In this document: positions 46,284-58,467 of the stretch, piece by piece
How the letters are laid out: every line of letters begins with the position of its first letter
How positions within the stretch are numbered: the stretch's first letter is position 1
From: Clostridia bacterium
GTDB lineage: Bacteria > Bacillota > Clostridia > Oscillospirales > CAG-382
Length of the DNA: 64,000 nucleotides
Assembly (NCBI GenBank): GCA_017436675.1
Contig: JAFSCS010000031.1
Coordinates: forward strand, 638 to 64,637
Direction of reading: 5' to 3'
Translations under genes and position numbers: made by a program
The notes under the pieces: model-generated
What the model saw: only the letters and a program-made list of their open reading frames with translations
Database searches by the model: none
What the model was told of the DNA's origin: nothing

Positions 46284-46332
46284 GAGCGCCAAAGAGCGCC
46301 TACCTTAAATGGTGGGCGCTCTATTTTTATTT
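46284..46332 (+). promoter_or_regulatory. Bipartite GAGCGCC-N3-GAGCGCC site overlapping a terminator hairpin
   Basis: AGAGCGCCTACC pairs with GGTGGGCGCTCT and is followed by a T-rich tract. Confidence 0.7.
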
Positions 46333-46345
46333 TAGGAGGTATAGT

Positions 46346-47962
46346 ATGGAAATACCCGTAATTGAGAGAATTAAAAGATTACCGCAGCAGACGGAGGAAA
46401 GTTTGCGAGACGCTTTCAGCGTGTTAATGAGCGTTGAAAATCGAAAATTAGCAGACGAATATATTAAATGGGTCCGTAGCGAAGCGAAAAAGATACGCTC
46501 CGCCGATATGTACGATCTGATAAAGAACACATATTTTTATGCGGGTCAGTATAGTCTCGATGATTTCATGATAGGAATGGAATGGAATCGAGAACCACAA
46601 GCGAGGTTTTGGTTGCCACGTCGAAAAGTGTTGGAGGGCAAACACGGAATAGCGACGGAGATACAAGAGTTTATGAACGACCCCGAAGCGTTGTTTTTGG
46701 GATTCAGTTTGCCTCCCGGCACGGGTAAGACAACGCTTATAAAGTTTTTGATAACGAGCATAATCGGTAGCGATCCACAATCGGCGAATATGTATGTTTC
46801 GTATTCGGATGGTATGACGAAAATGATGCTCGATAGCGTGAGATCGATGATAACGGATACGAGCGAGTATTGTTTCCACGATATATTTCCGGGATTGGGT
46901 ATGCCCGATATATCGGCAGAGTATAAGACGCTGAGCTATCGTCGTGCGGGTGATTTCCCTACCCTTGGCTTGATTTCATTGGGTGGTTCAGTAACGGGTC
47001 GTACAAGAGCGAACAAGTATTTGATAACGGACGACTTGGTTAAGAACAAGGAAGAAGCTCGAAGCCCCGAACGGCTCGCGAAATTGTATGACGATTACAC
47101 GGCGACGCTCACCACTCGTATGATTGGTGATAGGGTTAAACAGATAATGTTGGGAACTCGTTGGAGTGCTTACGACCCTATCGGTCGAATGGAGGCAGAA
47201 CACGGCAACGACCCACGATATAGGTTTATCGCTATTCCCGTGTGGGATGAAAACGAGGTATCGAATTTCGAGTATGAACACCCCGATAGATATACGACCG
47301 AGAAGATCAGGGATATTAAAGCCACGATAGATAGCGCGGATTTCGAGTGTTTGTTTATGCAACACGGAGTTGAAAAAGAAGGTTTGGCGTTCGCCCCGGA
47401 GAGTTTGAGATTTTATAACGGCGTTCTCCCCGATGGCGAACCCGATAATATTGTGTTTGTCAACGACGTTGCGTGGGGCGGTGGCGATAGTTTGAGTATG
47501 CCCGTGGCGTATATTTATGGCGGCGACGTGTATATTCACGATTGGATTTTCGACCGCAGAGATAAGAGTTTTACGAAGCCGAGAGTGGTCGGTAAGATAT
47601 TACACCATAAGATTAAAATGGGTCAGACCGAGGCGAATAACGGTGGTGAAGAATACTCCGACGATGTTTATCGGATCTTGAAAGAGGAACACGGATATAG
47701 CATAAATATGAGTCACAAGAAAGCGCCTACCACGATGGCGAAGCTGACGAGGATAGAGCAACACGCGCCGACGATCCGAAATTATTATTTCCGTGATAGT
47801 AGTTGCCGTGACGATGATTATAAAAGAGCGATGTCGGAATTGACGAGTTTTTCGTTTACCGCGAAGAACCTCCACGATGATGCTGCCGATAGTTTGGCTA
47901 TGCTTGCGGGGTATATTTCGGAGCGACCGAAGACGATAACGGTGGCGAAAAGACCGCTTTAG
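46346..47962 (+). CDS. Terminase large subunit
   Basis: LPPGTGKTT, ITDDLVK, GTRW...DPIG, D.AWGGGD, HDDAADSL. Confidence 0.9.
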   Translation: MEIPVIERIKRLPQQTEESLRDAFSVLMSVENRKLADEYIKWVRSEAKKIRSADMYDLIKNTYFYAGQYSLDDFMIGMEWNREPQARFWLPRRKVLEGKHGIATEIQEFMNDPEALFLGFSLPPGTGKTTLIKFLITSIIGSDPQSANMYVSYSDGMTKMMLDSVRSMITDTSEYCFHDIFPGLGMPDISAEYKTLSYRRAGDFPTLGLISLGGSVTGRTRANKYLITDDLVKNKEEARSPERLAKLYDDYTATLTTRMIGDRVKQIMLGTRWSAYDPIGRMEAEHGNDPRYRFIAIPVWDENEVSNFEYEHPDRYTTEKIRDIKATIDSADFECLFMQHGVEKEGLAFAPESLRFYNGVLPDGEPDNIVFVNDVAWGGGDSLSMPVAYIYGGDVYIHDWIFDRRDKSFTKPRVVGKILHHKIKMGQTEANNGGEEYSDDVYRILKEEHGYSINMSHKKAPTTMAKLTRIEQHAPTIRNYYFRDSSCRDDDYKRAMSELTSFSFTAKNLHDDAADSLAMLAGYISERPKTITVAKRPL

Positions 47963-47996
47963 CACTACATATAGTTTCGAACACTATATGTAGTGT
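47962..47996. promoter_or_regulatory. Tandem NrdR-box-like palindromes upstream of the portal gene
   Basis: GCACTACATATAGTTT and ACACTATATGTAGTGT versus consensus acaCwAtATaTwGtgt; TTGATT-16-TAGAAT follows. Confidence 0.6.
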
Positions 47997-57500: not shown

Positions 57501-58429
57501 ATAGCCCCTCTACCGTGTTTGCGGGGCTTGGCGAGAATATTGTCGCAGGTTTGCAAAGCACTTTAGGAATTACTTCCGTTACGGAAAAATTCTCCGAAAT
57601 GTGGGAGAACGCAAAATCGTGGTGGAATGGTTCAAAAGAAACACTTAACACATATACACCGAGCATAGGCGACATAAAAGGCAAACTTTCTTCGGCTTGG
57701 TCCTCTGCTAAGTCGTGGTGGGATAACAAAAAAGCCGCGCTTAAATCTTACACTCCGTCAATCGGCTCTATTTACGAAAAGGTAAAAGAGCGTTGGGATA
57801 GTGCGAGAACATGGTGGAATAACAAAAAGTCTGCTATGAAAGCATACACACCGTCTATTGGCTCTATCTATGAGAAGGTCAGCGAACGGTGGAAAAATGC
57901 AAGAGATTGGTGGAACGGAAAGAAAGGAAGTTTCAAGTCTTATACTCCGTCGATCGGTAGCATTACGGAAAAGGTAAAGAGCGCGTGGAACTCCGCTAAA
58001 TCTTGGTGGAACAAAAACGTTAAGCTCTCTACGAAACTCGATATCAAAGTTCCGAAGATTAAAGTTAATTGGGATACCGCTTCGGCTTTTGGAAAGTCGT
58101 TCAAGTACCCGACGGGCTTTAAACTTGATTTTGCCGCAGACGGCGGTATGTTCAACGCAGGTAGTCTTATTTGGGCGGGCGAACGCGGTGCGGAAATCGT
58201 TGCGAACGCTTCGGGCGGTAAGACAGGTGTAATGAACGTTCAACAAATGCAAGACGCAGTTTACGAAGGTGTTTACGCTGCCGTGATAGCCGCAATGAGA
58301 GGTTATAGTGGCGGTGGAGAACAATCCGTGAACGTGTACCTCGACGGAAAGCAAATCACAAGCGTAGTCGAGAAGCGTCAACGTGAGCGTGGAGCGTCCA
58401 TTATGGGTAACGAAGTATATTCATATTAA
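54566..58429 (+). CDS. Tape measure protein
   Basis: 1287 aa, Ala/Gly-rich TM region, Trp/Phe periodic repeats, GIHSPS, A.GG....G....AGE.G.E. Confidence 0.92.
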   Translation: MGTTIDSIQIEIQSGSINAAQGITDLSKALGELKKNGSIGTAAKNLQKLSDSLNGFTGAYQASNSLRNLANSIEKLKSVGSIASLANSLAKLPKALESLGAIDIKTNVTAQISSLVEAVAPLSSVKTSGFTSMVNSLKKLGEVTKSLDENDTLNEFIKRVEKLNEKLAPLSQKMTTIKTGFSSVNTNARKATSSVKEFADGVDSSKLNMASFIEIARTAVGALQNLIQQFAEITDKAIQWDGVAARFGRGFGAQAQETYAWIQRLNDELGINIQQFMQHSSVYATMLTGFGVASKDASKMALGYMELTYDIWAGYNDIYKTLDEAAEAVRSAIAGEVEPVRKAGFTIIESTLQQTAANHGLEISLEKATEAQKSYLRYLTLVDQAQAQSLIGTYAKEMNTAEGLMRTFAQQVKSLAQAFGSLFLPILTKVMPYLQAVVDLLADGVRWLGRMFGIEIQAVDWSGYNSGVTDAVENTQGVTGALNDATKAAKELKNASIGLDELNVISPPTSSSGGVGGAGSGSGGTGFENIDIDSLWDDSIFDGVKNKVSDIVKNMKDWLGITDDIDSWADFFETRLGQILIVVGEIGLGISAWKVSKTLIDSIATLKTLLANPYYAITIGAILTIAGVTFTYQGMEDAIKNGLDGFNFAEIVGGSLFTTGGVAILGSKLATWISTAFTGSAVDLAITQAGINLGVGTAGAAGAALASAVAGIVLGIPAMFVGIYDACMNGLDWLNGLLIPAGSTAASAGIGAIIGALGGPIGAGVGALIGLAVGLVTDGVILIVQEWDKISAFFSKFFTETIPELWDDFVGWCEGVGEFFTKDIPTFFTETIPEWGNEIFYGLGYALGEGARAVYDWWNDDVVPFFTKDIPNFFTETIPDWGTQLWNGITSAFNTATRAISSWWNDDVVPFFTKTIPNFFTSDLPGFFASLPGTFKEVGESIIDGLWEGVTGAWTWLKETIGGWCGNFVQGFKDAFGIHSPSTVFAGLGENIVAGLQSTLGITSVTEKFSEMWENAKSWWNGSKETLNTYTPSIGDIKGKLSSAWSSAKSWWDNKKAALKSYTPSIGSIYEKVKERWDSARTWWNNKKSAMKAYTPSIGSIYEKVSERWKNARDWWNGKKGSFKSYTPSIGSITEKVKSAWNSAKSWWNKNVKLSTKLDIKVPKIKVNWDTASAFGKSFKYPTGFKLDFAADGGMFNAGSLIWAGERGAEIVANASGGKTGVMNVQQMQDAVYEGVYAAVIAAMRGYSGGGEQSVNVYLDGKQITSVVEKRQRERGASIMGNEVYSY

Positions 58430-58438
58430 TAGAGATTA

Positions 58439-58467
58439 GAGCGCCACAGAGCGCCTTTAAAGAGGTG
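58439..58467 (+). promoter_or_regulatory. Bipartite GAGCGCC-N3-GAGCGCC site whose second half can pair with the RBS
   Basis: CGCCTT-TAAA-GAGGTG hairpin directly before ATG 58470. Confidence 0.65.

Follow-up and report, generated by a model that had tools for sequence, protein, structure and literature searches.

The window analysed here, 64,000 nucleotides of a Clostridia bacterium contig (GenBank assembly GCA_017436675.1, JAFSCS010000031.1, positions 638 to 64,637), carries from about 21 kb to its end a siphophage-type prophage, the contig being part of a 54%-complete metagenome-assembled genome (MAG). Analysis of the late region of this prophage indicates that a 57-amino-acid (aa) zinc-finger protein related to Com of phage Mu probably switches the packaging, head and tail genes through three small RNA hairpins, by antitermination and by translational activation. 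An earlier note on this DNA had already proposed that one small protein coordinates packaging, head and tail expression, and the motif, its covariation, its co-occurrence with the protein and constrained folds now support this proposal in silico. The open reading frame (ORF) of the finger protein, here called com, and the three sites picked out by the note were all found in place; the features located below lie on the plus strand unless stated otherwise.

Published in vitro selection of RNA ligands (SELEX) with the zinc-finger domain of a Haemophilus Com yielded the core 5'-GAG(N)2CC-3'; of 999 selected RNAs, 868 had the bipartite arrangement NGAGNNCC(N)2-3GAGNNCCNN, with a predicted short hairpin whose six-residue loop is closed by C-G; the native Mu Com site reads GAAUGCC-UGC-GAGCAUC (PMC6483171). 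Site 1 (GAGCGCC-AAA-GAGCGCC, 46284–46300) and site 3 (GAGCGCC-ACA-GAGCGCC, 58439–58455) are exact fits to the SELEX motif GAGNNCC(N)2-3GAGNNCC. As their GCGC cores are self-complementary, the two half-sites of such a GAGCGCC pair form a 4 bp stem (GCGC/GCGC) with a C-NNN-GA loop, which at site 1 is CAAAGA. Site 2 (GAGCGTC-AAATA-GAACGCC, 50224–50242), which occupies the last codons of com, gives the stem GCGU/ACGC with an 8-nt loop, and because all four pairs are kept it is a compensated hairpin variant and not a degenerate copy. All three sites are thereby able to form a Com-type 4 bp hairpin, and small hairpins with a C-Nn-GA loop describe them better than linear bipartite sites do.

Covariation among the sites of related phages agrees with this shape. 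An alignment of 49 sites (47 distinct) from the window and its Com-bearing relatives was compiled, and all 188 stem cells of the 47 distinct sites can pair. Changes on both sides were seen in three of the four stem pairs, in 11 cells in total (two positions with A-U in place of G-C, and U-A in place of C-G), together with two G-U wobbles. The observed covariation score was reached by none of 500 shuffles, and slid controls paired in at most 70% of the cells. A permissive Rfam scan (by E-value) of positions 40000–64000 returned no relevant family, with a sub-threshold rimP match elsewhere.

The second half-site of site 1 begins the 5' arm of terminator T1 (46293–46333), a 12 bp stem (46293–46322) followed by ATTTTTATTTT, and the arrangement claimed for this site, ahead of terL and with its second half-site as a terminator arm, was confirmed by both sequence and fold. 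Directly after T1 come the Shine–Dalgarno (SD) sequence of terL (46334–46339) and its ATG (46346). When folded without constraint, the site 1 region adopts T1 at −25.1 kcal/mol, as against −13.2 kcal/mol with the small hairpin enforced and its loop blocked, and in the latter case no GC-rich stem is left before the U-run. No promoter-like site was found in the 24 nt between T1 and terL, and terL, portal, the MuF-like gene and com would therefore rely on read-through of T1, which would place com inside its own regulon.

Site 2 is likewise joined to a terminator. T2 (50237–50279; AACGCCAAC...GTTGGCGTT and a T-run, fold z-score −4.7) consists of the stem GAACGCCAAC...GTTGGCGTT followed by TTTTTTATTT. 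The second half-site of site 2 contains the T2 5' arm, and the hairpin encloses the com stop codon (50254–50256); a simple terminator scan had passed over T2 because the stem has an internal loop. Enforcing the small hairpin leaves a residual T2 stem that is set apart from the U-run. The position given for site 2 in the note, at the end of the finger gene, before scaffold and capsid and with a terminator, therefore stands. The same variant is found at the same place in six relatives (L069, L070, L124, L125, L131 and L134), other relatives having perfect GAGCGCC pairs there. Among 18 sites at the 3' end of com, 17 were flagged as terminators that use the second half-site, and in the 18th (L132) the hairpin was seen by eye. 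As the com stop codon lies before, within or after the second half-site, depending on the phage, this half-site is not kept by coding.

The tape measure gene and the gene that follows it are 40 nt apart, and site 3 occupies this gap at a distance of 6 nt from the SD sequence of the latter. The minimum free energy (MFE) fold of positions 58438–58484 (−24.9 kcal/mol, z −3.3) is a predicted inhibitory structure in which the second half-site pairs with the SD sequence GAGGUG (58462–58467) and the first with the AUG region (ATG at 58470), and both SD and AUG are unpaired when the small hairpin is enforced. In eight of eight aligned relatives site 3 precedes a homologous DUF6711-type gene, with the SD sequence at most 8 nt away and no terminator, and their consensus fold keeps both helices (CGCC with GGYG of the SD sequence, GCGCC with the start-codon region). 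A stem that occludes the ribosome-binding site (RBS), as claimed for this site, is thus predicted by the MFE fold; the 'distal tail gene' behind it is one by position, DUF6711/phrog_1194 being a family without assigned function.

The com gene (50083–50256) starts with an ATG overlapping the end of the MuF-like gene and encodes MLIYEQIRCPRCGRRLVDMKGQAQIRCPKCKALVEIDTEARKIFIKTERQIERQQSK, a protein of 57 aa with cysteines at positions 9, 12, 27 and 30 (CxxC-14-CxxC), that is, with the N-terminal C4 zinc ribbon of the Com family; the cysteines of Mu Com are at 6, 9, 26 and 29 (PMC3299994). Profile searches gave a match to phrog_6417 ('translational regulator') with an E-value of 9e-7 and 16.8 bits with the Pfam family PF10122 (Zn_ribbon_Com), which is under the cut-off of 22.9. 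Several of 108 close homologues (31–100 aa) were named 'phage FluMu protein Com' by the Joint Genome Institute. In 40 aligned homologues C9, C12, C27 and C30 are invariant and R8, P10, K29 and K31 are also kept; PF10122 matches 29 of these 40 at E ≤ 0.01, and generic zinc-ribbon families match as many. Alignment of the homologue profile with a bona fide Com (L064) by hhalign gave a probability of 87% (E 4e-6) over 29 columns. The protein thus appears to be a distant Com relative, below the curated threshold, that shares the defining RNA target; the label of a Com-like zinc finger can be retained on the grounds of phrog_6417 and hhalign, with PF10122 limiting it to a distant relative. A tblastn search with the finger protein against 50,697 GenBank phage records yielded no match at E ≤ 1e-3, and no cultured model phage was found. 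The C-terminal tails of Com-like proteins are variable, and such tails (…TERQK, …ERQKVERQQSR) correspond to the half-sites translated as Glu-Arg-Gln codons, so that the tail of such a protein is partly dictated by its own RNA site.

Whether the motif exceeds chance depends on how much of it is counted. The single heptamer occurs 8 times in the window with 6.4 expected, and a loose SELEX pattern gave six matches genome-wide, the same as its reversed control, so that neither is enriched. By contrast, the 18-mer AGAGCGCCAMAGAGCGCC (written with its variable base, AGAGCGCCA[A/C]AGAGCGCC) occurs twice versus 0.07 expected with three mismatches allowed, and these two copies are the only ones in the 1.5 Mb genome. 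Relaxing the search of the window to one mismatch per half-site gave seven matches on the plus strand and none on the minus strand, with 0.9 expected per strand. Four of the seven were taken as chance, three (5297, 5423 and 13166) being antisense in minus-strand host ORFs without a terminator and one (58938) lying within an ORF and lacking the CC. In the IMG/VR database the exact 18-mer with one free base was found at 66 loci, versus 17 for the reversed motif. Thirty of the 66 were near-copies belonging to three groups and were dropped, leaving 36 representatives. The contigs with 18-mer loci range from 34 to 67% GC, many loci are intergenic, and what follows them is either a hairpin that reuses the second half-site and ends in a T-run, or an RBS and start codon. 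One group (L005, L010, L011, L021 and others; about 15 contigs, GC about 0.61) has no RBS, terminator or Com and probably reflects a conserved coding stretch in which the match is due to chance or another cause. As the relaxed scan proved noisy in the relatives (100 matches, 30 of them antisense), only strict or compensated sites in context were counted there.

The earlier note had staked its idea on the motif being conserved and co-distributed with the finger gene in relatives, and both were found. Three records (G006, G030 and G031), with protein identities of 43–80%, keep the order primase, terS, minus-strand genes, resolvase, site 1 with T1, terL, portal, com, site 2 with T2, scaffold and capsid, and they also keep the tape measure gene, site 3 and the DUF6711 gene in succession. 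At all ten sites in the pre-terL position the second half-site was flagged as the beginning of a terminator stem, which is completed by an inverted copy (GGCGCTC) and followed by a T-run; this position was confirmed by tblastn only for the window and these three records, the other six being assigned by position relative to com. Spacers of site 1 in the relatives are 2–16 nt long. More distant Com-bearing phages offered 12 first ORFs behind their sites, comprising three terL (G002, G023 and G036), four tape measure (G023, G036, L124 and L131), one endolysin (the fourth site of G031) and one phrog_1194 gene (L123), the remaining three being without functional annotation. In provirus G031 this fourth site, GAGCGCC-TCC-GAGTGCC with a G-U wobble (L107 9903–9925; G031 29903), lies just upstream of the endolysin gene (phrog_15001, 3e-73), and the regulon can therefore reach lysis. 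Tandem arrays of four half-sites (AGAGCGCCAT repeated, or with spacers of 3, 2 and 1 nt) were also observed directly upstream of an RBS, in L014 (1991–2030), a record in which no Com gene was detected, and on the minus strand of L046/G024 (38606–38640).

Co-distribution was examined from both directions. Starting from the motif, phrog_6417 was detected in 15 of the 36 18-mer records and in none of 15 reversed-motif controls (Fisher P = 0.0017), the controls being those of the 17 reversed-motif loci that were searched as whole records. A search of the 21 phrog_6417-negative motif records with PF10122 added nothing, and one control record scored 12.3 bits, under the cut-off. Starting from the protein, 14 IMG/VR loci encoding Com relatives contained 23 strict sites (GAGCGCC-N1-25-GAGCGCC) in sense and none in antisense or for the reversed control, with at least one strict site in 12 of the 14; two of these loci lie on contigs that the motif search had also found, and two are near-identical to each other. 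Among species-representative genomes, five true relatives were found in Eubacteriales, Acutalibacteraceae and Faecousia MAGs. Three of the five together carry four strict sense sites and no antisense site, the other two carry compensated variants (GAACGCC-N2-GAGCGTC and GAGCGTC-Nn-GAACGCC), and four weak matches have none. Strict sites of the IMG/VR loci and the MAGs together thus amount to 27 in sense versus none in antisense, and a site comes straight after com in many lineages. Furthermore, two loci encode Com proteins that score 54.8 bits (L064) and 58.2 bits (L035) on PF10122, and the 3' end of com in each of them bears the identical 18-mer, which indicates that genuine Com systems use the motif of the window; in L064, com overlaps a D12 adenine methyltransferase gene, whose start lies 18 nt behind the 18-mer.

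On these grounds we propose that the finger protein recognizes, in the late mRNA, three small hairpins of the form GA-[4 bp]-C-loop-GA-[4 bp]-C. The terminator 5' arm at sites 1 and 2 begins with the very bases that make up the 3' strand of the small hairpin, and bound Com would hold these bases and block the terminator, so that RNA polymerase could read on past T1 into terL, portal, the MuF-like gene and com, and past T2 into the scaffold, capsid and tail genes. The small hairpin alone is worth just −3.7 to −5.8 kcal/mol, so that a protein clamp would be needed, and such a clamp could act because both half-sites are transcribed before the terminator 3' arm. At site 3, Com would free the SD sequence and start codon of the gene after tape measure, as Mu Com does for mom. 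The location of com downstream of the first terminator suggests a positive-feedback logic, in which some Com would be produced by leakage through T1 and would in turn open T1, T2 and site 3. Com binding, the direction of its effect and this feedback are what we infer from the above.

Several observations weigh against this proposal. The Pfam score of the finger protein is under the cut-off, generic zinc-ribbon families score it equally well or better than PF10122, the hhalign link to a true Com amounts to only 87% over 29 columns, and a profile search of solved structures gave generic zinc ribbons alone (E ≥ 0.18). The 2–3 nt spacer of the SELEX motif is exceeded at site 2 (5 nt here, up to 11 nt in relatives) and at site 1 of one relative (16 nt). 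The covariation analysis used sites picked for their context and for a sequence with no more than one mismatch per half-site, and many of the compensated cells go back to few events in related phages, seven U-A cells coming from homologous copies of site 2. A site beside a structure that hides the translation start is predicted at site 3 without compensatory pairs (none of nine in its helices, both partners being conserved for other reasons), and sites 1 and 2 are fused to terminators. The 21 motif records without detectable Com (phrog_6417, PF10122) include five rated 100% complete; two records rated complete, L003 and L026 (G001 and G013), have a perfect site and terminator without a phrog_6417 or PF10122 match, and may encode either a more divergent binder or respond to a protein acting in trans from elsewhere. 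The first Com would need leakage through T1 or a promoter, and none was found, com being behind T1. Ribosomes finishing com cross site 2 into T2 and may compete with Com or suppress T2 by themselves. Finally, none of 20 RNA runs checked contained DNA of window positions 45000–52000.

Some of these points lend themselves to other explanations. The finger protein could bind the hairpins with a different outcome, namely repression, through a blocked ribosome at site 3 or reinforced pausing or termination, stabilization or processing of the mRNA, or autoregulation at the 3' end of com, which we consider unlikely. The direction of the effect is deduced only from geometry and the analogy to Mu, a protein bound at site 3 is near enough to the SD sequence to hinder the ribosome, and site 2 is located in the mRNA of com itself; yet the small hairpin uses the same bases as the terminator or SD helix, so that binding and the inhibitory fold are mutually exclusive, the sole studied member of the family is an activator (PMC6483171, PMC3299994), and transcription of terL, with a terminator immediately ahead of it and no promoter-like site in between, calls for some means of read-through. 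It seems a little less probable still that the hairpins are real but are read by another factor, such as a host protein, another phage protein or the ribosome on com, with the finger gene as a bystander. The motif records without detectable Com and the weak Pfam assignment would be accounted for in this way; difficult to reconcile with it are the co-occurrence of motif and protein (15 of 36 versus 0 of 15), the strict sense sites in 12 of 14 Com-relative loci, the site directly after com in many lineages and the fact that the motif is the SELEX motif of the Com zinc finger.

That the repeats are instead DNA operators, recombination sites or packaging sites, with the serine recombinase encoded at 45065–45691 as candidate user, is very improbable. 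A DNA-binding dimer could well use two direct 7-mers at a distance of 10 bp, and both the window and its relatives have a resolvase gene upstream of site 1, but the spacers vary from 1 to 16 nt, compensatory changes keep an RNA stem, the sites are embedded in terminator arms or adjoin SD sequences, and direct repeats 12 kb apart would allow a resolvase to delete the head and tail genes. The G-U wobbles and the strict strand bias (27 sense, 0 antisense) speak for an RNA rather than a DNA element. We give hardly any credence to chance, or to shared ancestry of terminator sequences without regulatory meaning: the lack of enrichment of the single heptamer and of the loose SELEX pattern, and the 17 IMG/VR loci that even the reversed 18-mer finds, would be in line with it, but not the two copies of the 18-mer versus 0.07 expected, the keeping of three homologous positions across phages of 40–52% GC and recurrence of the motif in unrelated lineages of 34–66% GC, or the preservation of the second half-site of site 2 whether coding or not.

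Control of the packaging, head and tail genes by the finger protein thus remains the favoured explanation for this prophage. Beyond it, we lean slightly towards the broader view that Com-type zinc ribbons are widespread, overlooked master switches of phage late genes, with two to four sites per genome, acting on antitermination and translation with positive feedback; these sites would precede terL or genes for head, tape-measure or distal-tail proteins, and the endolysin gene in one provirus.

The genes surrounding the sites are those of a late operon with a split terminase region. Primase (38683–41061) and terS (41518–42039, GP3_package) are followed by a gap of about 4.3 kb up to terL (42040–46345), which contains minus-strand genes, a divergent promoter-like region (44460–44790), a 91-aa ORF and the gene of the small serine recombinase (208 aa, Resolvase domain, phrog 'DNA invertase'), downstream of which is a 187-aa ORF whose N-terminus bears a zinc-ribbon signature. 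The relatives G006, G030 and G031 keep the terS/terL split and the recombinase; the 187-aa ORF is not kept. Behind T1 come terL (46346–47962, phrog_38, E 1.4e-52), portal (48061–49467, SPP1_portal, E 4e-60), the MuF-like gene (49451–50080) and com. Scaffold (50375–50929, phrog_172) is the first gene behind T2 and is followed by the major head protein gene (50929–51735, phrog_544), head–tail and tail genes and tape measure (54566–58429); the first gene behind site 3 is the 123-aa DUF6711/phrog_1194 gene (58470–58841), with further tail genes downstream.

The scaffold 5' untranslated region between T2 and the gene contains three small hairpins with AGAGAA hexaloops (50281–50294, 50309–50322 and 50339–50352), whose role is uncertain. 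In this element (50281–50363) the last two hairpins belong to 30-nt tandem units ending in TAAATCGCAAA. Across phages there are two or three such units of about 30 nt, each consisting of a 3–4 bp stem that closes a hexaloop, AGAGAA or GGAGAU, with (U)UAAAUCGCAAA after it, and the stems vary widely (GGC/GCC, CGG/CCG, CUG/CAG, GAC/GUC, GGU/ACC and others). Hairpins with the AGAGAA loop were found in 17 of 18 related leaders and also in the separate G002/G024 lineage, directly after the com site and terminator; further examples are L100 (18576–18650) and L110 (5840–5900). The fold of the window leader is not unusually stable (z 0.39) and no Rfam family matched the AGAGAA element. Its loop is similar to the CAGAGA loop of the Com-bound SELEX RNA. 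These tandem hairpins may belong to the same ribonucleoprotein switch.

In the published literature searched (subscription-only papers and supplements aside), Com appeared only as a translational activator of mom or methyltransferase genes, with nothing on antitermination or virion genes, and switching of packaging, head and tail genes is probably a role not described for this family. Com has long been known as one protein with one hairpin and one target, mom or a methyltransferase gene; here the same protein–RNA pair seems to govern the entire virion programme in a group of gut Clostridia phages by disarming terminators locally. If true, this would explain the odd terminators within the late operons of many uncultured phages, provide a simple annotation signature and add a very small natural part, a protein of about 50 aa and an RNA of about 20 nt, that switches both read-through and translation. 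The Mu Com hairpin is already in use as an RNA tag.

The closest known system is Mu Com itself, likewise a small C4 zinc-ribbon protein whose target is a short hairpin of two GAG/GAA-NN-CC/UC half-sites, and site 2 uses the same two variant half-sites as the Mu site in reverse order (PMC6483171). As predicted for site 3, the Mu target adjoins a fold that hides a translation start, and com is located in the late operon near its target (PMC3299994). In contrast to the one site in Mu, three are present here, two of them fused to intrinsic terminators; the targets are terL, head and tail genes in place of a DNA-modification gene, and no such gene directly follows com in the window. The phages also differ, a Clostridia siphophage here and a Mu-like phage of Proteobacteria there, as do the fingers, CxxC-14-CxxC under the Pfam cut-off versus CxxC-16-CxxC. 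The Com–methyltransferase pairs of FluMu-type prophages (Hin1523, Hia5 and Nma1821; PMC3299994) are represented among our loci by L064 and L035, which carry the 18-mer of the window immediately ahead of the methyltransferase RBS; such pairs differ from the present system in having one site, no terminator and one modification enzyme as target.

With regard to the proposed action on terminators, two well-known schemes offer themselves for comparison. BglG, SacY and LicT are RNA-binding antiterminators that clamp an antiterminator hairpin, the ribonucleic antiterminator (RAT), which overlaps a terminator. As proposed here for sites 1 and 2, the protein stabilizes a weak 5' hairpin whose 3' strand is needed by the terminator 5' arm, and at both sites the element indeed overlaps that arm, the two structures being mutually exclusive. 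The likeness is one of logic only, the proteins being unrelated: CAT/PRD domains stand against a zinc ribbon and sugar-regulated host operons against a phage late regulon, with no evident signal input in the latter. Phage lambda Q and N load at one site and modify RNA polymerase so that it becomes processive and resistant to terminators. Q and N share with the scheme proposed here that a phage protein passes transcription through terminators into late genes. Unlike in lambda, both terminators of this prophage have a site to themselves at which they would be disarmed locally, and the remaining site would act on translation, which, if true, would place a new form of late-gene control beside the Q/N, sigma-factor and activator schemes.

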